A program made the position numbers and the translations under genes. From the sequence record LC739533.1: DNA of 64,000 bases, one strand, 5' to 3'. The notes under the pieces were generated by a model that saw only the letters and a program-made list of their open reading frames with translations, was not told the origin of the DNA and ran no database searches. Shown here piece after piece: positions 21,428 through 34,609 of this stretch. The first letter of the stretch is position 1, and each line of letters opens with the position of its first letter. The stretch comes from Escherichia phage phiWec179.

Positions 21428-21488
21428 GCGGTGGACCGTTCCGCCGCCCTATGTGGTAAACTATACGCGCCAACGTTCCAGGCGTCAA
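21428..21488 (-). promoter_or_regulatory. promoter + 5'UTR stem-loop cassette (PeSL-like)
   Basis: TTGACG-N17-TATAGT TTACCACATAGG + hairpin GCGGCGGAACGGTCCACCGC. Confidence 0.55.
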
Positions 21489-21606
21489 GCATATTTTTAA
21501 AATTATTTTCTACAACGTAAAACGCCCCAGCATAAGCCAGGGCGCACTAATTAAATCAGGTAGGGGGATTGCATTGCCTTACACCTTTTAGGCTGTTAGC
21601 TGGCGA

Positions 21607-21834
21607 TTAATAGCGTAGGATGTTTACACGCTCATCCCGCCCCAAGATATCCTCATATCTGTTTCCCCTTCCTTCGTACCAGATGATCACGGTATGAGGA
21701 TCAAACGGATTGTTTTCGATAGCCGTTACCTTGCAGAAGTCATAAGACGGGAACGGATAAACGCCAACCTGTAAACGCGCCCGATCTCCTGGGCGAATGG
21801 TAGCGGCACGATCTGCAATGATATTGTTATACAT
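21607..21834 (-). CDS. hypothetical protein
   Basis: 75 aa. Confidence 0.45.
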   Translation of the reverse strand: MYNNIIADRAATIRPGDRARLQVGVYPFPSYDFCKVTAIENNPFDPHTVIIWYEGRGNRYEDILGRDERVNILRY

Positions 21835-21958
21835 GGTGCACCCCCTTAATATTTTTCTTTTTCTTTGCTTCCGTTCGTCTAAGGTTACGGCTTGACTTGT
21901 TACGCAAGGCGCTCAAATCATCATAACCTTTAAAAGGTTGCATATTGTTCGGATTCAT
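21827..21958 (-). CDS. small basic protein (start uncertain)
   Basis: AAGGGG + ATG at 21958; Lys/Arg-rich C-terminus. Confidence 0.3.
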   Translation of the reverse strand: MNPNNMQPFKGYDDLSALRNKSSRNLRRTEAKKKKNIKGVHHV

Positions 21959-21968
21959 GCTACGCCCC

Positions 21969-22247
21969 TTAACGGTTATAGATATTGTGGATAGTGATAA
22001 AGGCGCTACGGTCATAAGCTGCCAAATCGGGATTGATCCAAGTGTTATCTAATAGTGTTTCAAGGATAATAGACTCATCATGAATAGCATCATAGAAATC
22101 AGGGTTAATAATGGTGTCAATGTCGCTTTCTGTTAACTCTACATTCAGCTTGCAAACCGCTTGCAAATCGGCTTCACGCTTCCAATCTTGCAGATTAGTA
22201 GTCAGAATGTTGGTGATCTCTTCGGTAGATAATTTGGTGATGGTCAT
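21969..22247 (-). CDS. hypothetical protein
   Basis: 92 aa; cassette upstream. Confidence 0.5.
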   Translation of the reverse strand: MTITKLSTEEITNILTTNLQDWKREADLQAVCKLNVELTESDIDTIINPDFYDAIHDESIILETLLDNTWINPDLAAYDRSAFITIHNIYNR

Positions 22248-22265
22248 GATATTTTCTCTCTGTTA

Positions 22266-22323
22266 GGCGGGGCGCTTGTCGCCCCTATGTGATACATCTT
22301 ATCAGGTTGATTCAGCTTGTCAA
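22266..22323 (-). promoter_or_regulatory. promoter + 5'UTR stem-loop cassette (PeSL-like)
   Basis: TTGACA-N17-TAAGAT GTATCACATAGG + hairpin GGCGACAAGCGCCCCGCC. Confidence 0.6.
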
Positions 22324-22329
22324 TACTTT

Positions 22330-22536
22330 TTAACGTGTCGCGTAAATAATATTACTTGCCGGACTACTGCAAACCAGGTTAAGCGGCTTGCTGTTATATT
22401 GCATCTTGTCGGCTTGTTTGCTTGCTGCGATGATTCCATCTATTACACGTTGCAAACTAACCTTTACCGCCTTTTTTGCCAACCGTTGACGCTTTACCAG
22501 TGCCTGGATCTTTTTCTTGTCTGCGTTGCTTAACAT
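22330..22536 (-). CDS. hypothetical protein
   Basis: 68 aa. Confidence 0.45.
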   Translation of the reverse strand: MLSNADKKKIQALVKRQRLAKKAVKVSLQRVIDGIIAASKQADKMQYNSKPLNLVCSSPASNIIYATR

Positions 22537-22545
22537 GGTGCGCCC

Positions 22546-22725
22546 TTACTTGTTAGCCGGATTGTATGCCAGGATCGCGCCGCTTGCTTTCACGCTTTCA
22601 TCTTCATAGTTGCGCAGATCGTTTTCTGTAAGATTGAGCGCGATCACTTCCTCGATCTCAATGCCAGTGGCAAGGGCGATCTCTTTAATGATGTTTGATG
22701 ATCTGATAACGTTTACTGTTTTCAT
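22546..22725 (-). CDS. hypothetical protein
   Basis: AAGGTG + ATG at 22725 (MKTVNVIRSS). Confidence 0.4.
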   Translation of the reverse strand: MKTVNVIRSSNIIKEIALATGIEIEEVIALNLTENDLRNYEDESVKASGAILAYNPANK

Positions 22726-22735
22726 GGTGTGCACC

Positions 22736-22855
22736 TTATAAGATGATTGATAAGATAGTGATAACGAAAGCGATAACACCAACGGCGATCGTAGTCTTAC
22801 GCCCTTCGGATACTGCCGGATTCTCTACCGTGTATTCTACTGTGTATTTGTTCAT
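22736..22855 (-). CDS. small membrane peptide (39 aa)
   Basis: GAGAGGATAACACA + ATG; hydrophobic C-terminus IAVGVIAFVITILSIIL; below ORF-track cutoff. Confidence 0.3.
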   Translation of the reverse strand: MNKYTVEYTVENPAVSEGRKTTIAVGVIAFVITILSIIL

Positions 22856-22878
22856 TGTGTTATCCTCTCGCTTGCTTT

Positions 22879-22935
22879 GAGAACTATTCCCGCCGCCCTA
22901 TGAATTAAATATACACTATCCCAAAATGATTGCAA
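22879..22935 (-). promoter_or_regulatory. promoter + 5'UTR structured cassette (divergent)
   Basis: TTGCAA-N17-ATATTT AATTCATAGGGCGGCGGG. Confidence 0.4.
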
Positions 22936-22954
22936 GCCTTTTTCTAAATTATTT

Positions 22955-23239
22955 TTATGCAGTAAACAGACCATCATTTACAACGGCGGCGATGATCTCC
23001 CGTGCCATTGATTCAGGGAACGGGGCGCTATAGTCCTGGCTTGTCTCGTCGCTGTCTGTTACCCAATGATAAGCCAACGAGTAAAAGCCTTTACTCCCTG
23101 TTTTCAGTGAAACGATGATCACTCGGTTAAGTCCATCGGTAAACGTTGCCGTTAATGTGTTATCATCTTGCGTCATGTTGGACAAGTAAGCGGCATCATT
23201 AACCAGGGAAAACAGTAGCACCGTGTTAGCTTTAACCAT
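22955..23239 (-). CDS. hypothetical protein
   Basis: GAGGAT + ATG at 23239 (MVKANTVLLF). Confidence 0.45.
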   Translation of the reverse strand: MVKANTVLLFSLVNDAAYLSNMTQDDNTLTATFTDGLNRVIIVSLKTGSKGFYSLAYHWVTDSDETSQDYSAPFPESMAREIIAAVVNDGLFTA

Positions 23240-23258
23240 GATTTGATCCTCAAACGGG

Positions 23259-23310
23259 CGCGGCACCATTGCCGCCCTACGTAATACACTTTACCTTATT
23301 TCTTCCAAAA
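23259..23310 (-). promoter_or_regulatory. promoter + 5'UTR stem-loop cassette (PeSL-like)
   Basis: TAAAGT -10, GTATTACGTAGG + hairpin GCGGCAATGGTGCCGC; -35 weak, overlaps upstream gene end. Confidence 0.45.
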
Positions 23311-23496
23311 AGCAAGTTTATTTGCAATTGGTGACAAATAACGTTTACCCGCGTAAAACAGTACAGCGACACTAACCACGGCGGCGATCTCATGCATAGC
23401 CGACGGGAAACGAGTATCATAATAAGATCCAATAATAGCAATAGCGGCAACGGCTGCAACGTCGATAATGATTTTTTCTTGTTTTGCGGTGATCAT
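23296..23496 (-). CDS. small membrane protein
   Basis: hydrophobic VAAVAAIAIIGSYY and VVSVAVLFYAG. Confidence 0.45.
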   Translation of the reverse strand: MITAKQEKIIIDVAAVAAIAIIGSYYDTRFPSAMHEIAAVVSVAVLFYAGKRYLSPIANKLAFWKK

Positions 23497-23516
23497 AATA
23501 TTTACCTTTTTGTATG

Positions 23517-23578
23517 GTGGGGGGAACTATTCCCCGCCCTGATGTAATACAGTTTAACAGATCCGGTTATAGTGTCAA
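23517..23578 (-). promoter_or_regulatory. promoter + 5'UTR stem-loop cassette (PeSL-like)
   Basis: TTGACA-N17-TAAACT GTATTACATCAGGGCGG + hairpin GGGAATAGTTCCCC. Confidence 0.55.
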
Positions 23579-23584
23579 CCACTT

Positions 23585-23770
23585 TTAAAGATATTTTATA
23601 CTGATAACATTTTCCGGTTTAACCTGGTTGTGATAAGCATCAATGTAAATCAAACCATCGTTAGAAACGCCCAGGATCACGCCTTGCGCAATAAAACCGT
23701 ATCGGTCGCGGTAACGTGCCGCCACTTTGTTCGCTGCGTTGTAGGCTGTTTTAATCTCGTTTAAGGTCAT
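23585..23770 (-). CDS. hypothetical protein
   Basis: 61 aa. Confidence 0.45.
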   Translation of the reverse strand: MTLNEIKTAYNAANKVAARYRDRYGFIAQGVILGVSNDGLIYIDAYHNQVKPENVISIKYL

Positions 23771-23797
23771 GTGCTGTTATCCTCTCGTTAGATATAA

Positions 23798-23828
23798 GAA
23801 AGGGCGCTATTTGCGCCCTTGATTTGTT
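23798..23828 (-). terminator. intergenic hairpin (terminator/attenuator-like)
   Basis: AAGGGCGCtatttGCGCCCTT, same motif family as 17023 and 17588. Confidence 0.4.
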
Positions 23829-23975
23829 TTAGTCTTCCAGGTCCATCCATGCACGTTTCTCGGTGCGGTCGCGCTTAGTTTTGTTGCGCTTGTCGCCCTT
23901 GCGGATCACTTCTTCATTCCACGCTGCGCGTGTTTTAGAAGATTGGATTTTTTCGGCGCGATTAGATGTATTCAT
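23829..23975 (-). CDS. small basic protein (48 aa)
   Basis: GAGGAAACATC + ATG after cassette; MNTSNRAEKIQSSKTRAAW...; below ORF-track cutoff. Confidence 0.35.
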   Translation of the reverse strand: MNTSNRAEKIQSSKTRAAWNEEVIRKGDKRNKTKRDRTEKRAWMDLED

Positions 23976-23995
23976 GATGTTTCCTCTTTTTAGTT

Positions 23996-24056
23996 GTGAG
24001 CGGCACCATTGCCGCCCTACGTGTTTTAATTTACTTTATTGTTTGATGCCTGTCAA
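23996..24056 (-). promoter_or_regulatory. promoter + 5'UTR stem-loop cassette (PeSL-like)
   Basis: TTGACA-N17-TAAATT + hairpin GCGGCAATGGTGCCGC. Confidence 0.55.
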
Positions 24057-24073
24057 CTACTTTTAAAAACTTT

Positions 24074-24427
24074 TTATTCGTGGGAAAGTGTAAGGATCAC
24101 ACCTGCAATATATAACCAATAGTTTTCCCTTTCTTTCTGGATCTTGTTTTCGCTACTACGCTCGTTAATGTACCCCCAGGATGTTAACAACCGATCTACT
24201 TCCCAATACTCGAAAGCTATATTAATATTTGACGGTAAACCTTGTAACCATGATGCTATTGCTCTGATAATGTTATGATCGTAACGTTTTTGATTATCGG
24301 TGTACCAATATTCAGATTTAAAACAGCGCATCAATTCCGCGATCTTCTCTTTCTCTTCTGTGATGCCATACTCGCTATAATCAATTGAGGCCAGAATATA
24401 AAGTTTAATTGCATTTTGTGCTTTCAT
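24074..24427 (-). CDS. hypothetical protein
   Basis: 117 aa; cassette upstream. Confidence 0.5.
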   Translation of the reverse strand: MKAQNAIKLYILASIDYSEYGITEEKEKIAELMRCFKSEYWYTDNQKRYDHNIIRAIASWLQGLPSNINIAFEYWEVDRLLTSWGYINERSSENKIQKERENYWLYIAGVILTLSHE

Positions 24428-24444
24428 GGTGTCTCTCTTCTGTT

Positions 24445-24504
24445 GTGAGCGGCACCATTGCCGCCCTATGTGTTACATCTTACCGGATTTTTAAAACTTG
24501 TCAA
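24445..24504 (-). promoter_or_regulatory. promoter + 5'UTR stem-loop cassette (PeSL-like)
   Basis: TTGACA-N17-TAAGAT GTAACACATAGG + hairpin GCGGCAATGGTGCCGC. Confidence 0.6.
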
Positions 24505-24726
24505 TCATTTTTCTACTATCATTTGATAACCTGTTTCAAGGTTAGTAAACACCGTGATCCCGTCCTGGCGTTCACTCATAAGCAAGCAAGGCGCTAACAT
24601 CCTTCCTACTTCCTTGCACTCGTTATAAGCGGCGGTAATGTCTCCCGCTGCTTTGTCTTCTGTGGTGAATGTATCGTTTACGTAAACTTTACCAGCGACA
24701 ACGGCGACAATAGCAAAAGTGATCAT
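24505..24726 (-). CDS. hypothetical protein
   Basis: GAGGAAAACATC + ATG at 24726 (MITFAIVAV). Confidence 0.45.
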   Translation of the reverse strand: MITFAIVAVVAGKVYVNDTFTTEDKAAGDITAAYNECKEVGRMLAPCLLMSERQDGITVFTNLETGYQMIVEK

Positions 24727-24804
24727 GATGTTTTCCTCTTTGTGTTTTTCGTTTTGATTAGTTGATAATACAGCAATTCGCAGATTAGTCTTTAGCAATT
24801 CATG

Positions 24805-25023
24805 CTATTTACTCACAACAGTATCGAAAACAAATTTTTCTTTGTTGTCGAAGCTAACATATCCGATTCGACCACGCAAGCCGCCAGTAGTGCCGTATTC
24901 GTAACCATCAAGGCCTTTAACCTTCCAATCCGTACCCATTAAAACCGCATTATATTTCTGACCAACTACAAACGCGCCACCAGTTGATTCAATGCAAACA
25001 ACTTTAATTTTACGGATTGCCAT
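24805..25023 (-). CDS. hypothetical protein
   Basis: 72 aa. Confidence 0.45.
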   Translation of the reverse strand: MAIRKIKVVCIESTGGAFVVGQKYNAVLMGTDWKVKGLDGYEYGTTGGLRGRIGYVSFDNKEKFVFDTVVSK

Positions 25024-25101
25024 TTTCTTTCTCTCTTTGTGGTGATTGGTTTCTCTTCTCTATAGCGCCCATTATAAGGCGCTATAACGAAAAGTCAACG
25101 A

Positions 25102-25269
25102 TTATTTTTTACGGCTTAAGGTGCCCAAGTTATCAGCGTGACGCAGACCAGGGAAGATCCAAGCGCCGGATTCATCTTTTACAGGTGCCTTAACACTTGC
25201 GCCCAGGTTGGCGGCGTTAACTTTACGTGCTACGTTGCGAGCGGCTTCACGGGTAGTAAAAGTAATCAT
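25102..25269 (-). CDS. small protein (55 aa)
   Basis: GAGGAAAACATC + ATG (MITFTTREAARNV...), same initiation module as 24505..24726; below ORF-track cutoff. Confidence 0.35.
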   Translation of the reverse strand: MITFTTREAARNVARKVNAANLGASVKAPVKDESGAWIFPGLRHADNLGTLSRKK

Positions 25270-25293
25270 GATGTTTTCCTCTTCTCTTTGTTA

Positions 25294-25355
25294 GGCGGTG
25301 GACCATTCCGCCGCCTTGATGTAATACAGTTTACTCTATTTTTATTTCTTTGCAA
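25294..25355 (-). promoter_or_regulatory. promoter + 5'UTR stem-loop cassette (PeSL-like)
   Basis: TTGCAA-N17-TAAACT GTATTACATCAAGG + hairpin CGGCGGAATGGTCCACCGCC. Confidence 0.55.
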
Positions 25356-25500
25356 CTACTTTTATATTTTCTTTCTTTGCCTCTTCCACCTGGTCCGCCC
25401 ACTGCTTACCCCACGTTTGAGCGTTATAGTGATATTGACAAAGAGCAACACCACGTTTTAAACCAGCGATAGACTTTTTACCACATTGACAAGTTTTCAT
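25345..25500 (-). CDS. small Cys-containing protein (51 aa, tentative)
   Basis: ATG at 25500 (MKTCQCGKKS...); weak SD; 3' end overlaps cassette. Confidence 0.25.
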
Positions 25501-25511
25501 TTTGTGATCCC

Positions 25512-25724
25512 TTAGTTGATGATAGTCAGTGTAAAATTATAATCACCATTCTTATATAACACCATATTACCGAAGGTGCCGACTCGACGCATATCCATAC
25601 GGATACCTATAACATCTTTAACGTCTTTAATGTTTTTAACGCCCGTGATATCTTTATTAAAATATTCCTCGTCTGAAAATAAAACTTGACTTGCATTTTT
25701 TAACAGTGTGCGGATATTAGCCAT
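25512..25724 (-). CDS. hypothetical protein
   Basis: 70 aa; cassette upstream. Confidence 0.45.
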   Translation of the reverse strand: MANIRTLLKNASQVLFSDEEYFNKDITGVKNIKDVKDVIGIRMDMRRVGTFGNMVLYKNGDYNFTLTIIN

Positions 25725-25745
25725 CGTGATAATCTCTCTTCTGTT

Positions 25746-25805
25746 GTGAGCGGCACCATTGCCGCCCTACGTAATACAGTTTACTCTTTTTCTTTCCGGT
25801 GTCAA
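25746..25805 (-). promoter_or_regulatory. promoter + 5'UTR stem-loop cassette (PeSL-like)
   Basis: TTGACA-N17-TAAACT GTATTACGTAGG + hairpin GCGGCAATGGTGCCGC. Confidence 0.6.
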
Positions 25806-25813
25806 CAATCTTT

Positions 25814-26041
25814 TTAGATTAATTCGTCCAGGCATAACAGGCGATCAACGTTGAGATCGGTCAGGCTGATGGTTGGCACCTGATAAGATTCGATGTACTC
25901 GACGCTTGCATATTCCCCAAAGTTAGCAATAGCCCACTTATTCAAGATCTCACATACATCATTAATCTTTTTGTTTGTTACAACTGCAATAACCTGGGAA
26001 GTGCCAACGGTGCCGGATACGCGAACAATATTGATAGCCAT
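25814..26041 (-). CDS. hypothetical protein
   Basis: 75 aa; cassette upstream. Confidence 0.45.
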   Translation of the reverse strand: MAINIVRVSGTVGTSQVIAVVTNKKINDVCEILNKWAIANFGEYASVEYIESYQVPTISLTDLNVDRLLCLDELI

Positions 26042-26061
26042 GATTTTTCTCTCTTCTGTTA

Positions 26062-26119
26062 GGCGGGGCGCTTGTCGCCCCTATGTGATACATCTTACAC
26101 TAATTTAAAACTTTGTCAA
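26062..26119 (-). promoter_or_regulatory. promoter + 5'UTR stem-loop cassette (PeSL-like)
   Basis: TTGACA-N17-TAAGAT GTATCACATAGG + hairpin GGCGACAAGCGCCCCGCC. Confidence 0.6.
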
Positions 26120-26214
26120 ATTATTTTCTATTTCTTCCGTAATAGCCCAATTTATGATCTAAGCTAAAACGTTTTGTGAGATAGGTCGAACGATGTTTCA
26201 TTTTTATGTCTCCT

Positions 26215-26454
26215 TTACATTCCAACCATAGCGGCGCGGATCGCGGTAGTGCTATACTTGAAACCGTCTGGAGTTTTATCTTGTCCAGTCTGTTCCAGAA
26301 AGAGCATCATATCACGCGCCGCATCGTTACGGTTAGAATTATAACTAATAAATTCTTTCGCGGTGCGGTATAATGATTCATCGTTATTAATCCAAAGGCT
26401 TACATTCCAATGAGTTTTGTTTTTGTGACCTAAGAACATTTTTGATTTAGCCAT
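26215..26454 (-). CDS. hypothetical protein
   Basis: 79 aa; cassette upstream. Confidence 0.45.
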   Translation of the reverse strand: MAKSKMFLGHKNKTHWNVSLWINNDESLYRTAKEFISYNSNRNDAARDMMLFLEQTGQDKTPDGFKYSTTAIRAAMVGM

Positions 26455-26475
26455 GATGTTAATCTCTTTTTCAGT

Positions 26476-26537
26476 GAGGCGGGAACTATTCCCGCGCCCT
26501 ATGTAATACAGTTTACTCTTTTTATTCGTGCTGTCAA
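26476..26537 (-). promoter_or_regulatory. promoter + 5'UTR stem-loop cassette (PeSL-like)
   Basis: TTGACA-N17-TAAACT GTATTACATAGG + hairpin CGGGAATAGTTCCCGCC. Confidence 0.55.
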
Positions 26538-26543
26538 TGCTTT

Positions 26544-26897
26544 TTATAAATCTTTTTTACGTTTTACATCGCTTGCATGACTGTATACAGCGATCCCATT
26601 ATCACGACAAAAACGGGTAAGGTATGATCCGCGTGAAAACTCTTTCCCTTCCAGGTCAACAACCTTGCTAAATTCTTCCAGGGCAACGGTATCAAAATGA
26701 TCACCATAACCATATTGAAACGGCACGTTAACAACTTCAATCAATTTACCGCCGATCTCAACGTCCACGCTTAAAGAAAAATATGTGTTACCGTAGGACT
26801 GTTGAAACCAGCGACGGGCGCTAATGTGAACGGCTTCAATCTCACCAATTTTAAATTGAGTGTTACCCAGGATCGCAACGTTGATATTTTTAGCCAT
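26544..26897 (-). CDS. hypothetical protein
   Basis: 117 aa; cassette upstream. Confidence 0.5.
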   Translation of the reverse strand: MAKNINVAILGNTQFKIGEIEAVHISARRWFQQSYGNTYFSLSVDVEIGGKLIEVVNVPFQYGYGDHFDTVALEEFSKVVDLEGKEFSRGSYLTRFCRDNGIAVYSHASDVKRKKDL

Positions 26898-26920
26898 GAT
26901 TTTTTCTCTCTTTTTGGTTA

Positions 26921-26974
26921 GTGGGAAGTGTTCCCGATAAAAGTTATTATGCTTATACTATCGTTTTTTGTCAA
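26921..26974 (-). promoter_or_regulatory. promoter + 5'UTR stem-loop cassette (divergent)
   Basis: TTGACA-N18-ATAATA + hairpin GGGAACACTTCCC. Confidence 0.45.
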
Positions 26975-26993
26975 TAGTATAAGACTAAAACTT

Positions 26994-27173
26994 TTAACGA
27001 TAATCATCGTAGGCTTTATTAACCTGGCGAATATAACATTCGAAAGCGAGATCAATAGAATCATATTCCCGCACATAATCCCCGTAAGAAACTACATACA
27101 CACCTTTTTGATCCTCAAACGTCATGATGATAGAATCCAGGCCGATGATTTCAGTTTTAGCGATGATAGTCAT
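26994..27173 (-). CDS. small protein (59 aa)
   Basis: ATG at 27173 after cassette (MTIIAKTEIIGLD...); below ORF-track cutoff. Confidence 0.35.
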   Translation of the reverse strand: MTIIAKTEIIGLDSIIMTFEDQKGVYVVSYGDYVREYDSIDLAFECYIRQVNKAYDDYR

Positions 27174-27194
27174 AATAATAACCTTTTTATTGTT

Positions 27195-27251
27195 GGCGGC
27201 ACCATTGCCGCCCTACGTGATAAACTATACCAGAATTTTAAACAGTGTCAA
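27195..27251 (-). promoter_or_regulatory. promoter + 5'UTR stem-loop cassette (PeSL-like)
   Basis: TTGACA-N17-TATAGT TTATCACGTAGG + hairpin GGCGGCAATGGTGCCGCC. Confidence 0.6.
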
Positions 27252-27261
27252 ACGTTTTTTC

Positions 27262-27507
27262 TTAGTTTGCGAAATATGGCGCGGCGGCTGATGCCGTTAA
27301 TCTCCAAGTGATTTGGCTATCGATCAAGTATTCTTCATTCTTGATCCGCACGGTATCAATCGAGAAGTTACTGAAAGGCTTGCTCTTGATTTTACGAACA
27401 ACCGTTACACGACGGTTATTTTTCATCTCTTTTAACTGAATCCAGGCGTAACCTTTTTCATTGACAAATATTTCATTGTGATTGGTGATAGATGATAAGT
27501 GTTTCAT
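27262..27507 (-). CDS. hypothetical protein
   Basis: 81 aa; cassette upstream. Confidence 0.45.
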   Translation of the reverse strand: MKHLSSITNHNEIFVNEKGYAWIQLKEMKNNRRVTVVRKIKSKPFSNFSIDTVRIKNEEYLIDSQITWRLTASAAAPYFAN

Positions 27508-27528
27508 GATTTTTCTCTCTTCTGTTTT

Positions 27529-27590
27529 GAGCGGTGGACCATTCCGCCGCCCTATGTGTTACATCTTACTACTTTTTTAAACATTGTCAA
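27529..27590 (-). promoter_or_regulatory. promoter + 5'UTR stem-loop cassette (PeSL-like)
   Basis: TTGACA-N17-TAAGAT GTAACACATAGG + hairpin GGCGGCGGAATGGTCCACCGC. Confidence 0.6.
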
Positions 27591-27598
27591 GGATATTT

Positions 27599-27880
27599 TT
27601 AACTATATGATCCACATCGTTCGCAGTAGTGATCATCGTCGTCATCTGCTACCTGGCTGATAAAATGATCTACCTTTGCTTTCAAATTATTATAATTGCT
27701 TTCTACTTCCTGTAGTCGTCGTTGGTAGTATTCCAGGGCTTGCACATAGGCCATTTGTTCGGTTTTAGCTTGCATAGCTAAATTCATGCCACGCGTTTCA
27801 TCGTATAACCAATAACCATCATTACATTCACTAATAGATAGTGTAGGGCTTAGTTTTTCGTGACGGATAACCTTGCTCAT
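27599..27880 (-). CDS. hypothetical protein
   Basis: 93 aa; C-terminal CERCGS. Confidence 0.45.
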   Translation of the reverse strand: MSKVIRHEKLSPTLSISECNDGYWLYDETRGMNLAMQAKTEQMAYVQALEYYQRRLQEVESNYNNLKAKVDHFISQVADDDDDHYCERCGSYS

Positions 27881-27890
27881 AGTGTGCCCC

Positions 27891-28001
27891 TTACTTCAAA
27901 ATGATTGTTGTGATAACTGCTACGGTGATCCAGAATGGAACAACTAAGATAATAGCGTTAATCGTTCCAACTGTCAAACTATTTTCTTTCTTGATCATCA
28001 T
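27891..28001 (-). CDS. small membrane peptide (36 aa)
   Basis: AAGGAAAAC + ATGATG; hydrophobic GTINAIILVVPFWITVAVITTIILK. Confidence 0.35.
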   Translation of the reverse strand: MMIKKENSLTVGTINAIILVVPFWITVAVITTIILK

Positions 28002-28008
28002 GTTTTCC

Positions 28009-28092
28009 TTACAGTGTCCAAAGAATGATTTCAAGTGCAGCACGGAAACCAGGAATAAAATTGATTGCAAAAAACAGGGAAGTAGTAAACAT
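28009..28092 (-). CDS. tiny hydrophobic peptide (27 aa, tentative)
   Basis: AAAGGA + ATG right after cassette; MFTTSLFFAINFIPGFRAALEIILWTL. Confidence 0.25.
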   Translation of the reverse strand: MFTTSLFFAINFIPGFRAALEIILWTL

Positions 28093-28110
28093 TTTTCTAT
28101 CCTTTCAGTT

Positions 28111-28170
28111 GTGAGCGGCACCATTGCCGCCTGATGAGTTAACTATAAGGGATCACGTTTTACCTGTCAA
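28111..28170 (-). promoter_or_regulatory. promoter + 5'UTR stem-loop cassette (PeSL-like)
   Basis: TTGACA-N17-TATAGT TAACTCATCAGG + hairpin CGGCAATGGTGCCG. Confidence 0.55.
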
Positions 28171-28724
28171 CCTAAATCATCAAAATAAAGATAATTTTTT
28201 TCGGCTTCTTTCTTCTCTTCCTGTGATGCCTCAAAGACTGGGAGAAAGTGATCAAAGGCGACGCACTCAACCGCTTGATCGTCTTCCTCTTCCTGGTCTT
28301 CCTCCTGGGCTATGGCTGCAATTTTGGCTAATTTCCTTTCAGCCTGGATCAGCTTACCATCTAAAACGCTTTTAGCGGTGCTGTACGCCGTCCAAGTGAT
28401 GCGCTTACTTTCCAGCGCGGCATCAAGCGCCGCTATCTTGCTGGGGTATTCATCCAGGACACGAAAAGCCGGATCTACCTTGTACAGCGGATTATCTTTC
28501 GCGCCGTCGCTATCATCTGCGGCGCTTGCAATGTCAGCGTTACCATTCGCCAGCCAACCAGGGCGATCGCTGCGTGTTTTGGTATTCCCATGACTACGCG
28601 CCGATCTGTTGCCTACTTGCTCGCCACTATAGCCAGGAGCATGATCGATCATGTCGTCCGGTATAATGCGCGGATCATTAACGTCATGTTTTACCCAGGA
28701 CTGGATCACATATTCGCGCCCCAT
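28167..28724 (-). CDS. hypothetical acidic protein
   Basis: 185 aa; higher GC than neighbours; EEDQEEEDDQ tract. Confidence 0.5.
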   Translation of the reverse strand: MGREYVIQSWVKHDVNDPRIIPDDMIDHAPGYSGEQVGNRSARSHGNTKTRSDRPGWLANGNADIASAADDSDGAKDNPLYKVDPAFRVLDEYPSKIAALDAALESKRITWTAYSTAKSVLDGKLIQAERKLAKIAAIAQEEDQEEEDDQAVECVAFDHFLPVFEASQEEKKEAEKNYLYFDDLG

Positions 28725-28984
28725 TATACACCCCTTTTAACAATCATTTCACACACAAGAAATAAGCTGGCGGAATCACGGCAAGGATAGAAAGATGTAC
28801 GATAATCTCTCACCCCTGCTTTTATGATCTCCGTGGTTTTACCTGATAGCACATTGTAAATAGTGTAACTTGTCGGACTGTTTTTATATACCTTGCCAGG
28901 GTAGATCATAACATAACGAGCAAGGTTATAAAATTCCTCGTTACGAAAGGCTATGATCTTCCCGCATACCTTAAGAAAGTGCAC
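28724..28984 (-). CDS. hypothetical protein
   Basis: 86 aa. Confidence 0.45.
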   Translation of the reverse strand: MHFLKVCGKIIAFRNEEFYNLARYVMIYPGKVYKNSPTSYTIYNVLSGKTTEIIKAGVRDYRTSFYPCRDSASLFLVCEMIVKRGV

Positions 28985-28994
28985 GTTAGCCCCC

Positions 28995-29267
28995 TTACAG
29001 CAAAAAGTTTACTTGTCTTGCTGTTAATGTAGTATCAACCATTTTCGGGCTTTTATAATTGACAAAACGCGCGGTTTTTTCAATAGCGAAGCCGAGATAA
29101 TCTTGTTTGTTGAAATTACATTCTTTCTTAAATGTTTCCCGTGCAATGGCGATCGCTGCGTCCAGGGATAAACGCCCGTCAATATTGATATTTGCGAAAG
29201 ATCCGCCACCGCTCATAGGTTTACCAGTGGTGCCCGTTACGATCATTGTTGCGCTATATGATGCCAT
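28995..29267 (-). CDS. hypothetical protein
   Basis: AGAGATTATCATC + ATG at 29267 (MASYSATMIV). Confidence 0.45.
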   Translation of the reverse strand: MASYSATMIVTGTTGKPMSGGGSFANINIDGRLSLDAAIAIARETFKKECNFNKQDYLGFAIEKTARFVNYKSPKMVDTTLTARQVNFLL

Positions 29268-29287
29268 GATGATAATCTCTCTTAGTT

Positions 29288-29351
29288 GTGAGCGGTGGAC
29301 CATTCCGCCGCTCTACGTGATACATCTTATCAGGTTGTTGCCTGTTGTCAA
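29288..29351 (-). promoter_or_regulatory. promoter + 5'UTR stem-loop cassette (PeSL-like)
   Basis: TTGACA-N17-TAAGAT GTATCACGTAGAG + hairpin CGGCGGAATGGTCCACCGC. Confidence 0.6.
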
Positions 29352-29357
29352 TACTTT

Positions 29358-29555
29358 TTATTCAAGCCCTACGATATGTAAGACACGGCGATTAGCAATA
29401 GCGTGCTGGTCTTCTGTTATAACGCCCATTTCTACCAGTGAATCAAGAAAGGAAAGCACCGTGATATATTCGTCATCGGGTACACTCATTTCATTAGTAC
29501 CGTTTACCACTACGTTGATTTGTCCTGCTTTCGCTACAATGTGCAATGTTGCCAT
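29358..29555 (-). CDS. hypothetical protein
   Basis: 65 aa; long GC-rich leader upstream. Confidence 0.45.
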   Translation of the reverse strand: MATLHIVAKAGQINVVVNGTNEMSVPDDEYITVLSFLDSLVEMGVITEDQHAIANRRVLHIVGLE

Positions 29556-29829
29556 GATCTTAACTCCAGGTGATGAATGATGTTTTTTGTTGGTTGACGG
29601 TGGATTATGGAGATCCTCACCTTTGCCCGTCCTGCATTGCGCCCTCCTGTTGTTTATTGTCGTTGTGCCTCGCCCCCCTCGACAAGATTAATACTACGCT
29701 ACCAGGTGCGGAACGTCAACGACTTTTTCAATCTTTTTTATTTTCTTTTTGCTTGCTATATATAAAGGAAAGGGCTATCATCTTTCTACCGCGCCAACCA
29801 GGGCGCACAACAGAAGAAAGGGCGACACC

Positions 29830-30096
29830 ATGACAACTACTACATTACACCTTATGCACTCGTTAGGCTGGCAAGGCGGCACGGTCCACCAGGTAGCAAG
29901 CGCAACGGGCTTAAAGGTTGAAACAGTTCTCAACCTGGGCGATCATAAAGTGGAAGAGATAGACCATTTTGATCCGTTCGCTGATGGTTATCTCTGGGCT
30001 TGCAGTGGCGGCGGGGAAAGCAAGATACCGCCAGCCGCGCGGGGCGATATGCATTTTTGGTTAGGTGTTCTCTCCTGGCAAGAAAACAAAAAATAA
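29830..30096 (+). CDS. hypothetical protein in GC-rich island (tentative)
   Basis: ATG at 29830 (MTTTTLHLMHSLGWQGG...); only plus-strand ORF between two minus-strand arrays; overlapping ORFs in other frames. Confidence 0.3.
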   Translation: MTTTTLHLMHSLGWQGGTVHQVASATGLKVETVLNLGDHKVEEIDHFDPFADGYLWACSGGGESKIPPAARGDMHFWLGVLSWQENKK

Positions 30097-30098
30097 TC

Positions 30099-30127
30099 TT
30101 GACAAGCCCAGGGATCGGGCTTATACT
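30099..30127 (+). promoter_or_regulatory. sigma70-like promoter before a GC-rich structured segment
   Basis: TTGACA-N17-TATACT, then about 110 nt GC-rich sequence with no convincing ORF. Confidence 0.4.
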
Positions 30128-30351
30128 GTTTTACATACAGAAGAGGAAGCGCCACCCCACGGCGTAAAGGCGGGGCTAACATACCAGGGGCACTGGTTGG
30201 AAGGTCGATCGCCGGGAGGCTGGGCGCTATATATTTGTAAAGAAATGTAAAGATAAAATAATCGCTTGCTTTCCTGGCTGGATCTGTTATTCTTATTACA
30301 TGGCGAGGGGACACGGGAGCGCGAGACAATCACCGGACCTGCCCGTCATTC

Positions 30352-30465
30352 TGCAAATGAGAAAAATTCTCATTTGCAAATAAGACTCATTCGCATTTAA
30401 TAATTGAATGAGAATCATTCTCATTCTCATTCGTATTTCGATTTTAAGTGAGAATAATTCTCATT
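30352..30465. promoter_or_regulatory. three operator-like palindromes sharing half-site AATGAGAA
   Basis: TGCAAATGAGAAaaaTTCTCATTTGCA (30352-30378, perfect 12-3-12); AATGAGAATcATTCTCATT (30407-30425); TGAGAATaATTCTCA (about 30449-30463). Confidence 0.5.
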
Positions 30466-30476
30466 TCGGTAATTTT

Positions 30477-30680
30477 CACGTAAACTTTAGAATTTGCTTT
30501 TCAACTTTCACTTTTGTAAAAGCAAAAAAACTTTAAATACCTGGTGCGCGCGACTTTTTAAAAAATTTTTCTCGGTTTTTTGCTTTGAAATCTGGCCCAC
30601 CAATTTGAGATAGTGTACGTAAACTTTAGAATTTGGTTTTGGATTCTCACTTTTGTAAACTCGTAAAAAGTTTAAATAAT
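30477..30680. repeat. imperfect ~64-bp direct repeat (two copies)
   Basis: ACGTAAACTTTAGAATTTG..CACTTTTGTAAA..TTTAAATA at 30477-30539 and 30616-30680. Confidence 0.5.
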
Positions 30681-30805
30681 TGTAGGGATTTTGAGATAGT
30701 TTGCTTGTAAGGTTTGAGATAATCCTTCCCGAAGATGTTACGCAGCCTACAGCCTACCTGAATGCTCGTCTAACGAGATTAACTCTAAAAGATGAGTGTT
30801 GGTGT

Positions 30806-30846
30806 AGCTAAAGAGAAAAGGCTCTCTACGGTGTTGTAGGAGCCTT
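30806..30846 (-). terminator. rho-independent-like terminator after NADAR gene
   Basis: minus strand hairpin AAGGCTC..GAGCCTT followed by TTCTCTTT, about 70 nt past stop of 30917..31444. Confidence 0.4.
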
Positions 30847-30916
30847 ATTTCTGTGGCACAAAGTTGACGTATTCTTTTTAAAAACGAATTTTTTCAAAAT
30901 ATCACGAATATCGCCT

Positions 30917-31444
30917 TTATGGTATTTTGGCTGGGAACAGGATTTTAATCAGATTGTTGTGGTATTGTCCTAAAAGATTCTGCCCTTTCCAGTTGGCAGG
31001 ATTAAGCACCCCTGGTTCGTACATACCCATTCCAATTCCGTAAACCTTATCATAAGGACTCGCCTCAACGAACGTTTTGAATTGGTACAGTCGCAAGTCA
31101 GAATAAAGATCAGGGTTCTGTGTATACTTCAAGCATAAGCCTCGCATTACGATACGCTCTCGGTACTCTTCCCACATGTCATTATTAAAACCAGACACCG
31201 CTCGACCCATGCGCTTGTAGTATGCCTGTCCCTTCTCGTCGTCACGCTTCATTGAGTGATCAAGGATAGCTGCTGCGATTACCTGATCCTTGAACAGCAA
31301 AGCCTTACGCCACATCATGTATTGCTCTACACAACAGAAAGTTTCATTGTACCCTGGTTCCGTCTCTGTGAATGGTGCAATGTACCAATTGCTAAACACA
31401 TCTTTATGTGAAAAGAAGAATACATATTCATTAGTTATTCGCAT
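30917..31444 (-). CDS. NADAR (YbiA-like) family protein
   Basis: FFFSHKDVFSNW...ETFCCVEQYMMWRKALLFKD...MWEEYRERIVMRGL..KYTQNPDL...FVEASPYDKVYGIGMG...NWKGQNLLGQ matches NADAR signature. Confidence 0.8.
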   Translation of the reverse strand: MRITNEYVFFFSHKDVFSNWYIAPFTETEPGYNETFCCVEQYMMWRKALLFKDQVIAAAILDHSMKRDDEKGQAYYKRMGRAVSGFNNDMWEEYRERIVMRGLCLKYTQNPDLYSDLRLYQFKTFVEASPYDKVYGIGMGMYEPGVLNPANWKGQNLLGQYHNNLIKILFPAKIP

Positions 31445-31619
31445 TTTTCATGCCTCTTAAGACTTCAGCTTGCCCGTCTTGAAAAGCTTTCATCAGAACT
31501 ATCTTAAGATTGACTTCCAAGCGTTCTTCATCCTCTTTATAACAATCCAACACTGCCTTAAGTTCATCATAGTGGTTCAGAATAGGTTTAAAGATTTCAT
31601 GATCTGCTAAACGTGCCAT
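31431..31619 (-). CDS. hypothetical protein
   Basis: AAAGGAGAAACT + ATG at 31619 (MARLADHEIF). Confidence 0.4.
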   Translation of the reverse strand: MARLADHEIFKPILNHYDELKAVLDCYKEDEERLEVNLKIVLMKAFQDGQAEVLRGMKNANN

Positions 31620-31632
31620 AGTTTCTCCTTTG

Positions 31633-31998
31633 TTAGTCCATCCACCAGTAGCCATAAACTGCGTCTGCGTCGATGAGTTTGTGTTTGTTGTTCCGCATGT
31701 AGTCTAAGATAAGTAGACGTTTATTGTATCTGGAGAGATTATGACCCTCTTTTCCGCCATAGTCAAAATATTTTGCAAGACTTTTACACTCAAACAAAAT
31801 CAGTTCGGGAGTTTCTTCACATTGGTCTGTCTGGTACACTTGACGGATGATCATGTATACGTCATCGTCTTCCGCTAAGTGCTCTACTGGTCCACACCCA
31901 GCAGGAATAAATTCATAGTCCCATCGAATCAGATGTTTCTCTACTGCTTCAAAGAAATCCATTTTTTCGCTACGCATGATCTGAACATCAATTAACAT
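31633..31998 (-). CDS. hypothetical protein
   Basis: 121 aa. Confidence 0.5.
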   Translation of the reverse strand: MLIDVQIMRSEKMDFFEAVEKHLIRWDYEFIPAGCGPVEHLAEDDDVYMIIRQVYQTDQCEETPELILFECKSLAKYFDYGGKEGHNLSRYNKRLLILDYMRNNKHKLIDADAVYGYWWMD

Positions 31999-33004
31999 AA
32001 TTTTCCTCCTGTCTCATTATTCCACCTGCTTGGTTGATAGCACTTAAGACAACAGCCAAATCCTCACGCAGGAAGGTTTCACTATGACCGTCTTTCATGT
32101 GCAACGCTTCCACACAGCCGATAGACGGTAGGATCTGATCAGTCTTAGATTTTAGCTTACTCTCTAACGCCCTGCAAGCCTGGTAGGACGGCAGATCAAA
32201 CAATGCTACACGTTGCATAAAGTAGTTATTATTTGCATTCTGAATCTTCAAACGTATATCACTATCCTTTGCAATCCCCAGCTTGAAAGCTCCCGTATCT
32301 TCTCCATACTCATCAAGGATAACGTTGATGTAAAATTCTTGCTGTGATCTGCCTTTACATTCAGAACAACCATTCCCACTTAGATACTTATTAGGTGTTA
32401 TCGTTTGTTCTCCGTGCTCACTACATAAATATTTAAACTTAGACATGGTTCCCACCTTACCAACGAACCCTATAAACTGGTCCCCTCGTTCCTGGCAAGC
32501 TTCAGTCATACGGAAAATCCATTGCGCAGGAGTGTAACGATGGTTTTTAGAACAACGGCAAGCAAGCAGCCCATCTCTAAGACTGCTCCTCGTTACTTCA
32601 AACCTACCGTTACACACGCCAGCCTTTACATATTCGTCATGAGAACATACGGAACACTTAACTATCCAATAAGCCGCCCATCCTTTACTATCTAATCTAT
32701 CACTACGATAATACTCACGCGGAACGTTATCAGGACACGCTTTGTTAAAGGTTGTGATATGGATTGAATCATCAATTAAACATGTTTGCCTTATTGCTTC
32801 CACCCTACAACCTTTACAACCACTTCCTATTTTAGCATTATCTATAGAAGTTGTTCTCCATTCCCCATGTATAGAACATTCACAGGTTAGTTTAGTGCGT
32901 GCCCCCTTCCATTCACCATGCCACCCCGTAATGGTCCACGGTTTATCCTGGTAAGCTTGTTCTATTTCTTCCTGATATTCCTCCCAACTTTTAGCCCTCA
33001 TCAT
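31988..33004 (-). CDS. zinc-ribbon repeat + T5orf172 (GIY-YIG-like) domain protein, homing-endonuclease-like
   Basis: repeated C..C...G.GC..C zinc-ribbon units; C-terminal FKLGIAKDSDIRLK...HMKDGHSETF; paralog of 36572..37525. Confidence 0.5.
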   Translation of the reverse strand: MMRAKSWEEYQEEIEQAYQDKPWTITGWHGEWKGARTKLTCECSIHGEWRTTSIDNAKIGSGCKGCRVEAIRQTCLIDDSIHITTFNKACPDNVPREYYRSDRLDSKGWAAYWIVKCSVCSHDEYVKAGVCNGRFEVTRSSLRDGLLACRCSKNHRYTPAQWIFRMTEACQERGDQFIGFVGKVGTMSKFKYLCSEHGEQTITPNKYLSGNGCSECKGRSQQEFYINVILDEYGEDTGAFKLGIAKDSDIRLKIQNANNNYFMQRVALFDLPSYQACRALESKLKSKTDQILPSIGCVEALHMKDGHSETFLREDLAVVLSAINQAGGIMRQEENYVN

Positions 33005-33041
33005 CCCCCCTACAACAAATGCCCCTTGCGGGGCATCTTTA

Positions 33042-34181
33042 TTAGAACACGCTACTTAAGGTTGCAGATCGTGTAGTGGTTGGTTCCAGAACCACACGGA
33101 ACGTATCCCCAGGTTTATCGCTCACTACTACAATCTTACCACCTTCGATCAGGTCACACTTCAAACCTTCGGCAGTAGCTTTCAGGTCGATGCGTGGATC
33201 GCCATCATCATCCAGGATAACGTAGCTGCTATCTTCGAGAGGCTCCAGTTCTTCGTCTTTCACGGCTTCCAGGTAGATGTTCAGTTCACATGCACCAGAC
33301 AAGAACTTGGTAGGAGTGAACTCATGCCAGTTGTTGACCCAGTTAGGCTTGATAGCTTTACCGTTGACAACAATAGAGCTAATCGTCCAGCGTGCATCGT
33401 TACCCAGAGAGATACCCATCATCTCCAGACAGGTCTTGAACGTCATTTTCGGATAGAAGTTTAACTCTTCTACGATCCCTTGAATAACATCGAAAGACAG
33501 TTCAGTGCTAACATCCCACAAACGTTGGAAGCTTTCAACATGTTTGCGATTCTTCAGATTCTTGTCCAGGTAGTCCAGCATAGTTTCAATAGACAGTTTG
33601 TCGTAGTTGAAGCTATAGAAGATACGGCTCGGACGGTTGACGAAGTATTCCGAGATGTATCCGCTGTTCTTTGTCAGCATGAACAGTTTGTTACCGCTAC
33701 CTGTGCCATCCAGCAGAGTCAGCAGTGCTTCCTGATCTTCCTTCTTGGAATACACTTTGTCGAACTCATCGAACAGTACTACTGCGCGTTCAGAGATCTT
33801 ACTCATGAACTCCAGGAAATTGGCATCAGAATATGGCTGCGTTACCAGAATAGTTGGGATTCCCAGGTCTTCCGCTTCCAACAGAGTGTTACTGATCAGT
33901 TTTGCCAGCATTGTCTTGCCACTGCCTTTTGTACCCGACAACAGGACACCTGTGTTCTTACCTTCTTTACTACGACGAGCGAAGGTACGGATAACGTGGG
34001 CTGCACGTTCTTTGGTTTCCCCGTACAGGCGATCAGGAATCGTGAACTTATCAGCGCGACTAAGAGAATAGTTACCATGTGGATCACAATTGACAGTCCA
34101 AACGCCAGCGGGGAGTTTATCAACCTCTACACCAAAATCTTTATTAACAATTGCAACATCCCCATAAACTGTGTATTTCAT
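33042..34181 (-). CDS. P-loop NTPase (AAA+-like ATPase)
   Basis: Walker A GTKGSGKT, Walker B VVLFDEFD; 379 aa. Confidence 0.6.
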   Translation of the reverse strand: MKYTVYGDVAIVNKDFGVEVDKLPAGVWTVNCDPHGNYSLSRADKFTIPDRLYGETKERAAHVIRTFARRSKEGKNTGVLLSGTKGSGKTMLAKLISNTLLEAEDLGIPTILVTQPYSDANFLEFMSKISERAVVLFDEFDKVYSKKEDQEALLTLLDGTGSGNKLFMLTKNSGYISEYFVNRPSRIFYSFNYDKLSIETMLDYLDKNLKNRKHVESFQRLWDVSTELSFDVIQGIVEELNFYPKMTFKTCLEMMGISLGNDARWTISSIVVNGKAIKPNWVNNWHEFTPTKFLSGACELNIYLEAVKDEELEPLEDSSYVILDDDGDPRIDLKATAEGLKCDLIEGGKIVVVSDKPGDTFRVVLEPTTTRSATLSSVF

Positions 34182-34249
34182 TTACTTTCTCCTCTTCTGT
34201 TGGAATAGACGTATTATCTCTTGTCTAATACGTCTTGTCAATACTTGTT

Positions 34250-34609
34250 TTAGATCCCTTCGCCTTTAGTGATGATAGCTTCCATCACCACAGCTTTCTT
34301 CTTACGTTGAACATCTTGACGGATCAGGAGGCTACCACCTTGATCATCCTTATACTGCTTCATGATGATGAAGTTGTTGCCACACACAGCGCCGATAGCC
34401 ACGTATGGGCGATTAGAATTATCCACATCCGCAGATGGGGTTACATCCGTGCAAGTAAAGAACTTGCCATCAGGATCAGTATAAGCAAAGTGGCCTTTAG
34501 CAGTTACTGCAACTTCTCCGGTGCTTGTGGACTGTGCAGCCACAAACGGTGCAGCAGATGCTACGAAACTTGCAGACAGCAGGGCTACAGCTAAAATAAT
34601 CTTTTTCAT
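34250..34609 (-). CDS. secreted protein
   Basis: signal-peptide-like MKKIILAVALLSASFVASA. Confidence 0.5.
   Translation of the reverse strand: MKKIILAVALLSASFVASAAPFVAAQSTSTGEVAVTAKGHFAYTDPDGKFFTCTDVTPSADVDNSNRPYVAIGAVCGNNFIIMKQYKDDQGGSLLIRQDVQRKKKAVVMEAIITKGEGI

Follow-up and report, generated by a model that had tools for sequence, protein, structure and literature searches.

A GC-rich island at 29560-30340 in the genome of Escherichia phage phiWec179 (sequence record LC739533.1) was analysed within a stretch of 64 kb, referred to as the window. Sequence comparison leaves us confident that the island is composite, consisting of a leftward promoter with its 5' untranslated region (5'UTR), a rightward gene for a protein of 88 amino acids (aa) and a further promoter, P1. 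The latter would drive a conserved non-coding RNA, RNA-A, which lacks a terminator and continues into a second promoter and transcript (P2 and RNA-B), followed by four palindromes and the AT-richest DNA of the window; order and orientation of these parts are kept in eight genera. The overall function is most likely in replication start or early regulation. All coordinates are window positions unless a locus label (e.g. L019) or the name of another phage precedes them.

Setting of the locus

Genes in the window are directed leftward up to ~38 kb and rightward beyond. The locus is a 1.36-kb gap (29556-30916) within the leftward early-gene block, bordered by a 65-aa gene (29358-29555, minus strand) and a NADAR-domain gene (30917-31444, minus strand). 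Over 29300-30800, identity is 100% with Escherichia phage phiWec181 (a Phapecoctavirus of the Stephanstirmvirinae) and 85-96% with many phAPEC8-like phages. Annotation of the gap varies by record and comprises either a rightward 88-aa open reading frame (ORF), a leftward 113-aa ORF (phAPEC8 gp257) or nothing. No tRNA or tmRNA was found. The module contains the following features:

30099-30127, plus strand: promoter P1, TTGACA-N17-TATACT (kept in 40/40 homologues)
30104-30122, plus strand: GC hairpin within the P1 spacer (scores as a terminator)
30133-30228, plus strand: RNA-A, predicted conserved core of a non-coding transcript (alignments, covariance model, pair counts, hairpin folds)
30236-30253, plus strand: direct repeat TGTAAAGAAATGTAAAGA directly upstream of P2 (conserved in nearly all homologues)
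30266-30293, plus strand: promoter P2, TTGCTT-N16-TATTCT (conserved position and spacing)
30298-30351, plus strand: RNA-B, predicted transcript with the invariant motif GAGACAAnCACC (alignment; conserved in rV5-like phages too)
30352-30466, no strand: four Fur-box-like palindromes of the type AATGAGAATnATTCTCATT (repeat finder, consensus scans; common to T5-like phages)
30467-30809, no strand: most AT-rich DNA of the window (composition, repeat finder)
30478-30539 and 30617-30678, no strand: two direct repeats of 62 nucleotides (nt), 84% identical (repeat finder, alignment)

Composition of the GC-rich island

The original prediction had described 29560-30340 as a GC-rich island of non-coding structured sequence with a near-consensus promoter, a candidate small RNA (sRNA) and one plausible small gene. 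The GC content is indeed high, 0.492 compared to a window mean of 0.421 (standard deviation 0.022 for 781-nt windows); this is 3.2 standard deviations above the mean and a value which only 0.1% of the 781-nt windows reach. ORFs overlapping on both strands are present as described, i.e., 29988-30329 and 30121-30333 on the minus strand and 30065-30250 and 30000-30167 on the plus strand, and are compositional. The island is not one non-coding structured block, however, because about two thirds of it are taken up by the minus-strand promoter, its 5'UTR and a protein-coding gene. The segment downstream of the promoter was correctly considered non-coding.

Promoter P1 and RNA-A

The predicted promoter is present exactly as described, with TTGACA at 30099-30104 and TATACT at 30122-30127, and agrees with the consensus at 11 of 12 positions. 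A match of this quality is not rare in this phage, because a promoter precedes nearly every early gene: a scan of 5 kb gave 22 promoter-like sites where 10.3 were expected, and two others, both on the minus strand, also reach 11/12. That P1 is not a chance match follows from its conservation. Homologues were collected from phage records, IMG/VR and metagenomes, giving a set of 40 distinct sequences; a promoter at the same aligned position matches at least 9/12 consensus positions in all 40 and at least 10/12 in 27 of them. The GC hairpin within the P1 spacer probably belongs to the mRNA of the 88-aa gene, as its terminator or 3' hairpin. In other lineages, the spacer contains different hairpins with GNRA loops (GAAA, GUAA, GCAA).

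RNA-A begins with a purine-rich tract. This is followed by stem S1 (CGCC/GGCG, 30150-30153 with 30161-30164), a candidate pseudoknot stem S2 (CCCC/GGGG, 30155-30158 with 30172-30175), a bulged hairpin (30179-30200) and the invariant block AAGGTNGATCGCCGG (30201-30215). The hairpin is the only helix with real support from covariation in the alignments. In alignment A3, 84% of its cells are paired, and sliding the partners lowers this to 28-48%; its covariation score of 0.113 exceeds that of slid partners (≤ 0.040), and none of 500 shuffles reached the observed value. At pair 52-74, 13 sequences have A-U and another 13 have G-C, and four pairs are changed on both sides. When the sequences were folded individually, each variant formed a bulged hairpin between the same anchors, differing in sequence and loop size; quite different hairpins, one with a UUCG loop, are found at this position in L047, L051, L023 and L036.

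S1 and S2 are almost invariant, hence give no covariation signal. An H-type pseudoknot is thus unproven, the sole variation being a swap of S2 for CCAA/TTGG in two related sequences. A competing long-range helix proposed by RNAalifold (GGC..GGC with GCC..GCU) is equally unproven. Resemblances to CRISPR (clustered regularly interspaced short palindromic repeats) repeats, as in an RNA anti-CRISPR, and to signal recognition particle RNA were seen by eye only and are too weak. The same applies to complementarity with the anti-Shine-Dalgarno sequence of 16S rRNA, also judged by eye; the tract resembling a Shine-Dalgarno (SD) sequence is not kept in divergent members.

The proposed check by folding and covariation analysis gave a divided result, since one RNA-A helix covaries but the folding stability is unremarkable (z-scores of -1.9, +0.3 and +1.4). 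Of the candidate sRNA, the conserved promoter, the non-coding character and one hairpin with compensatory changes stand. A free-standing sRNA of ~110 nt is doubtful, because RNA-A has no intrinsic terminator and runs into P2 and RNA-B and then into the palindromes, an arrangement collinear in eight genera. A scan of 30128-30404 detected no terminator-like site on the plus strand, and none is visible in the alignments. RNA-A therefore looks like part of a larger module arranged in cis.

Searches of the whole window against Rfam 15 gave no match at gathering thresholds; for 29300-31000 at E ≤ 10, only weak chance matches were obtained, the best with 21 bits compared to a threshold of 47. A covariance model built for RNA-A has a single match in the window (102.8 bits) and none in the rV5-like, T5-like or BME3-end loci.

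Non-coding nature of the RNA-A/B segment

Relatives with 88-98% identity differ in the segment by insertions or deletions (indels) of 1, 2 and 3 nt, and more distant relatives by indels of 5 and 9 nt. Column entropy for the three positions modulo 3 is 0.64, 0.63 and 0.67, i.e., variation has no 3-nt periodicity. Because of these indel lengths and the missing periodicity, the segment is considered non-coding.

Direct repeat, promoter P2 and RNA-B

P2 is weak in this phage (7/12), but matches 9/12 consensus positions in most relatives and is conserved in nearly all homologues. RNAalifold did not return a consensus structure for RNA-B. A candidate long-range helix joins ATGGCG at the 5' end of RNA-B to CGTCAT right before the palindromes, with 86.9% of the cells paired compared to 27-57% for slid partners; 21 cells of G.U type versus 8 of A.C type point to the plus strand. 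Support from these counts is moderate and suggestive only. A local RNA-B hairpin of 4 bp could not be counted, as the MAFFT alignment shifts its register. The rV5-like phages (slur16, L019 1853-2189) have no RNA-A and carry two tandem units, each of a promoter, a GC hairpin, GAGACAAnCACCGG and a palindrome.

Conservation across phage genera

A sensitive blastn search with the gap matched 407 phage records. In Seuna-, Mydo-, Certre-, Henuna- and other Vequintavirinae, the match is limited to ~30130-30425, and the matching region is mostly unannotated there. When an 8-kb query (26001-34000) was used, several Vequintavirinae genera (Seuna-, Mydo- and Certreviruses) matched only at 30130-30383, which makes the element the best-conserved nucleotide stretch of its neighbourhood. 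P1, RNA-A, P2, RNA-B, the palindromes and the AT-rich repeats are collinear in Phapecocta-, Justusliebig-, Seuna-, Mydo-, Certre-, Henuna- and Avunaviruses. Every genus inspected has the same architecture of leftward genes, a gap of ~1 kb and a rightward element. Module order and orientation are kept in eight genera, and the adjacent protein gene is flipped or replaced in some. One Vequintavirinae-like contig carries the 88-aa gene homologue in inverted orientation, co-directional with the flanking genes (L007 2086-2758 versus L012 2471-3112); despite this, the RNA element in L007 is still oriented against the flanking genes. Seuna- and Mydoviruses have an unrelated rightward ORF of 61 aa (12% identity) at the position of the 88-aa gene (L018 1761-1943; L021 1768-1953).

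Host origin or mimicry of the element was rejected: blastn found no match in 5,426 E. coli genomes, and a pattern scan of the GTDB species representatives gave chance matches in high-GC bacteria only, plus one phage-like contig of a metagenome-assembled genome. Literature searches retrieved neither a description of this RNA element nor transcript data for this phage group. The RNA-A/B locus is a new RNA or cis-element family, the general kind of which (early promoter-driven phage non-coding RNA or origin-type region) is known.

Palindromes, AT-rich repeats and relation to T5

The 300 nt with the lowest GC content of the window start at 30401, right after one of its GC-richest stretches. Each of the 62-nt repeats in the AT-rich DNA has a -10-like TAGAAT at its start and AAAAA(C/G)TTTAAATA at its end, the latter being invariant in relatives. 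These repeats could be iterons or further small transcription units.

The E. coli Fur box has the consensus GATAATGATAATCATTATC, or TGATAATnATTATCA in its 7-1-7 form. The palindrome TGAGAATnATTCTCA (TGAGAATGATTATCA in most relatives) is one or two positions off this 7-1-7 consensus. Matches to the 19-mer amount to 14-15/19 at 30404-30428 and 17/19 at 15874, and to up to 16/19 in relatives. Within 5 mismatches, 15 Fur-like sites were found, compared to 3.6 expected from shuffled sequences. Five sites are within 2 mismatches of the palindrome core, and all of them are located in the two big non-coding regions of the window, namely this gap and 15515-17056. Like Fur boxes, the candidate sites of the phage have 7-1-7 symmetry and form tandem arrays as in Fur-regulated promoters. 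They differ in that position 4 of the half-site is G (TGAGAAT) instead of the characteristic T, and in that they are situated downstream of P2 and not over a -10 or -35 motif.

The palindrome part of the gap matches T5-like phages at 72-86% identity. The matching sequence lies inside Repeat Region 3 of the T5 injection-stop (iss) region, an untranslated region with these palindromes (Davison, bioRxiv 10.1101/866236). Both loci are large untranslated regions next to early genes and carry the same class of AATGAGAATCATTATCATT palindromes, but the gap has no paired DnaA boxes and, judged by BME3, would not lie in a terminal repeat. TTWTNCACA does not occur in 14548-34419. In the T5-like loci no counterpart of RNA-A or RNA-B was found, and the likeness is confined to the palindromes. 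The T5-like untranslated region of Salmonella phage BSP22A has Fur-box-like palindromes at L062 2400-2560; a perfect LexA-type box, TACTGTATATTTATACAGTA, is present just left of its DnaA boxes and palindromes (L062 2262-2281).

The second non-coding region, 15515-17056, contains the same palindromes at 15868-15897 and 16057-16078 and the second most AT-rich DNA of the window. The genome of BME3 (Justusliebigvirus) ends with a direct terminal repeat of 342 bp (PMC12210895). The region 15515-17056 is homologous to the BME3 genome ends, and the terminal repeat maps to ~15.8-16.1 kb of the window. It may thus be the physical end of this genome; a genome terminus at the gap itself was rejected for the same reason. 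By this homology, the locus is ~14 kb from a probable genome end.

Proposed function: a transcription-activated replication origin

Our first choice, which we hold tentatively, is that the P1 and P2 transcripts act in cis and activate or prime a replication origin. Host RNA polymerase would fire P1 and P2 upon entry of the DNA into the cell. The G-rich, partly structured transcripts would then act on the adjoining palindrome and AT-rich DNA, either opening it or priming synthesis via an R-loop. Conserved phage replication proteins or a host factor would recognise the invariant RNA/DNA blocks. The locus would accordingly resemble transcription-activated origins like the T7 primary origin, T4 oriF/oriG or the ColE1 system with its RNA II. 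This possibility was placed first because the parts are coupled in cis, the transcribed strand is G-rich and the AT-richest DNA is adjacent. P1 and P2 are directed into the AT-rich region without a gene to express, as no plus-strand gene follows for at least 6 kb. The transcribed strand has a GC skew of +0.14 and contains six runs of at least three G compared to two of C.

In the T7 primary origin, an AT-rich stretch lies downstream of the tandem promoters 1.1A and 1.1B; T4 oriF and oriG have a promoter and a downstream unwinding element, and use an R-loop primer. The gap shares with them two tandem promoters directed into the region's AT-richest DNA with no gene to express, as well as the intergenic position in the early region of a virulent phage. 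It differs by promoters of the host sigma70 type, by ~165 nt of highly conserved and partly structured RNA between the two promoters, and by the palindrome arrays in front of the AT-rich DNA.

ColE1 RNA II is a structured origin primer RNA. Like it, the predicted transcripts are promoter-driven, non-coding and G-rich with conserved stem-loops, have no terminator of their own and are proposed here to act in cis on downstream DNA; the RNA-A hairpin with its compensatory changes fits a structured origin RNA of this kind. On the other hand, there is no sequence or Rfam similarity to RNA II, the length is different, the element belongs to a phage and not to a plasmid, and no antisense partner of the RNA I type was seen.

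The put RNA of phage HK022 is likewise a structured RNA right after an early promoter, and RNA-A could act in cis on its polymerase in a similar way. In contrast to HK022, no plus-strand genes to read through follow here for at least 6 kb, and one helix is supported. We know of no sequence similarity between the HK022 put antiterminator RNA and RNA-A or RNA-B.

For phage rV5, a change of skew was reported at 13675-13725 (PMC3606486). This position adjoins the element in the rV5-like phage slur16 (13467-13631).

Several points weigh against an origin. The authors of the rV5 study ascribed skew changes to changes in transcription direction (PMC3606486). No recognisable initiator gene is present beside the gap, the gap is free of DnaA boxes, P2 is weak in this phage and the folding energy of RNA-A is not exceptional. 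The near-invariant blocks of 31 and 18 nt across subfamilies exceed what R-loop priming needs and fit an RNA contacting a conserved partner equally well. Furthermore, the T5-like phages carry the same palindromes in a region which is not thought to be an origin (Davison, 10.1101/866236), and the palindromes recur in the counterpart of the BME3 genome ends.

Alternative explanations

Nearly as likely as an origin, although also to be regarded as tentative, is a trans-acting role, in which RNA-A and perhaps RNA-B would be abundant early non-coding RNAs made from a consensus promoter. The invariant single-stranded or pseudoknot segments would bind or sequester an Enterobacterales-wide factor or a phage protein, and the variable hairpin would be a scaffold. 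Invariant blocks combined with a hairpin that changes its sequence while the pairing stays are the pattern of a functional RNA. P1 is conserved, the core is invariant though the hosts span many genera, and each genome region yields exactly one copy with the covariance model. Other virulent phages also make abundant early non-coding RNAs of unknown role. These resemble RNA-A/B in that they follow a strong early promoter, contain no ORF and are conserved within a phage group, whereas RNA-A/B is conserved across two subfamilies, without a terminator and in a fixed DNA context. An RNA acting in trans is opposed by the absence of an intrinsic terminator or defined 3' end, by the unremarkable z-scores and by S1 and S2, which never vary and hence are without covariation support. 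L023, L024 and L036 no longer have the SD-like 5' tract, and the E. coli genomes searched contain no similar sequence. Duplex energies between RNA-A and the six early 5'UTRs of the window were no better than those of shuffled RNA, i.e., there is no excess complementarity, and antisense control of the phage's own early leaders was rejected. A trans-acting RNA also leaves the fixed cis arrangement with palindromes and AT-rich DNA unexplained.

Rather improbable is a control region at the DNA level, in which Fur or a Fur-like protein would bind the palindromes as in the T5 iss region and the promoters and RNAs would be accessory. Such a region might mark the end of the early segment entering first, titrate Fur or make early transcription iron-dependent. 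It would be consistent with the near-consensus 7-1-7 symmetry, the confinement of all five close palindrome-core sites to the two big non-coding regions, the identity to Repeat Region 3 and the likeness of 15.5-17.1 kb to the BME3 genome ends, which puts the locus near a probable physical end. High sensitivity to daunorubicin is common to Demerecviridae and Vequintavirinae (PMC13250531), which is a weak lead in the same direction. However, the paired DnaA boxes defining the T5 region are absent, T5 and the gap are similar in the palindromes only, and a resemblance to Fur boxes is frequent among AT-rich palindromes. The placement near a genome end is derived from BME3 and not from the termini of this phage, and binding by a protein to DNA leaves the compensatory changes of the RNA-A hairpin unaccounted for.

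More speculative still, and a long shot in our estimation, is a cis-acting station for the control of genome entry or replication which is common to T5-like, rV5-like and phAPEC8-like phages. In all of them a host factor would act on Fur-type palindromes, with promoter-driven structured RNAs added in the myoviruses. The station would mark the boundary of the first-expressed early segment of ~14 kb by the genome end and time the use or copying of the rest, or it would titrate Fur for iron enzymes of the phage.

It is very unlikely that P1/RNA-A and P2/RNA-B are functionless decayed starts of early genes, each a promoter with a leader from which the coding part has been lost. RNA-A does begin with the ACAGAAGAGGAA SD-type tract of early genes, with 75% identity over 20 nt to the leader of the 88-aa gene, and RNA-B begins with ACAT and a GC hairpin, as early leaders do. 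A relic, however, would neither be the best-conserved nucleotide stretch across subfamilies nor keep compensatory changes or the promoter spacing in 40/40 homologues.

Finally, a minus-strand protein encoded by the GC-rich segment (phAPEC8 gp257 of 113 aa; slur16 gp025/gp026) can practically be dismissed: long minus-strand frames span most of the 260-nt core in many homologues and some records annotate a coding sequence (CDS) over it, but relatives are separated by indels of 1, 2 and 5 nt, variation is without 3-nt periodicity, the 113-aa product has no PHROG or Pfam match, most records annotate no CDS at the element, and open frames are expected on a C-rich strand. Minus-strand CDS over the element are annotated in phAPEC8 (gp257, L002 4330-4671), slur16 (gp025/026, L019 1718-2165) and phi1_175008 (CDS0268, L025 2343-2549); these are probably annotation artefacts of the C-rich strand.

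Flanking genes and early-gene leaders

The remaining features in and around the gap are as follows:

29556-29690, minus strand: long GC-rich 5'UTR of the 65-aa gene (sequence)
29691-29719, minus strand: sigma70-type promoter TTGACG-N17-TAGTAT of the 65-aa gene (promoter scan, 9/12; homologue annotated as promoter in phAPEC8)
29753-29781, plus strand: promoter TTGCTA-N17-TATCAT of the 88-aa gene (promoter scan, 9/12; hairpin-plus-SD layout as in other early genes)
29791-29806, plus strand: 5' hairpin GCGCC/GGCGC of the 88-aa gene leader, upstream of the ACAACAGAAGAAAGG SD region (RNA fold)
29830-30096, plus strand: 88-aa protein gene, phrog_19316 (codon-position substitutions, homologues, profile search, AlphaFold2)
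30810-30846, minus strand: intrinsic terminator of the NADAR-domain gene (sequence; annotated as terminator in phAPEC8; conserved in the alignment)
30917-31444, minus strand: NADAR-domain gene (Pfam PF08719, E = 1e-33)

The small plus-strand gene suggested at 29830-30096 is real. Substitutions relative to its relatives are distributed 59:43:193 over codon positions 1, 2 and 3, i.e., the ORF evolves as a protein, and judged by this pattern it is a genuine early gene. Homologues of the protein exist in other genera with identities down to 45%, and a profile search retrieved 212 cluster representatives at E ≤ 1e-3. AlphaFold2 models an all-helical protein of five helices with a mean confidence (pLDDT, predicted local distance difference test) of 93.9. 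Pfam, PDB sequence and fold searches gave neither a family nor a solved relative, and none of the fold matches was significant; the impression of a helix-turn-helix at residues 17-36 was not supported by these searches.

In phAPEC8, a conserved 5' hairpin, which bears the annotation 'PHIRE promoter', and the SD tract CACAACAGAAGAGAG come after each early promoter. The hairpin looks like a conserved 5' RNA stem-loop. The leftward early genes of the window have the same layout of a sigma70 promoter, a conserved 5' hairpin (AGGGCGGCAATGGTGCCGCT or AGGGCGGCGGAATGGTCCACCGCT) and the CACAACAGAAGAGAG tract; six such leaders, all on the minus strand, start near 29351, 27590, 25805, 24504, 24056 and 21488. 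The 5'UTR of the 65-aa gene is longer by ~117 GC-rich nt than in phAPEC8, whose match begins only at query position 117 and whose counterpart is a short standard leader with a 5' hairpin. Folding of this 5'UTR is not exceptional (z = +0.55). Its extra stretch (29570-29690, minus strand) includes an SD sequence and a mini-ORF of six codons (ATGCAGGACGGGCAAAGGTGA).

On the other side of the gap, the terminator at 30810-30846 protects the region against leftward read-through. The NADAR family is tied to the reversal of ADP-ribosylation, and the gene at 30917-31444 could have an anti-defence function.

Significance

The phAPEC8-like and rV5-like phages are common in collections for phage therapy and biocontrol, and no other non-coding DNA found here is as well conserved across Stephanstirmvirinae and Vequintavirinae as this locus. 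The element is routinely missing from annotations or wrongly annotated as a minus-strand protein. It is a small and concrete target for experiments, and a new RNA family entry would be justified. The shared palindromes connect the locus to the long-unexplained injection-stop region of T5.

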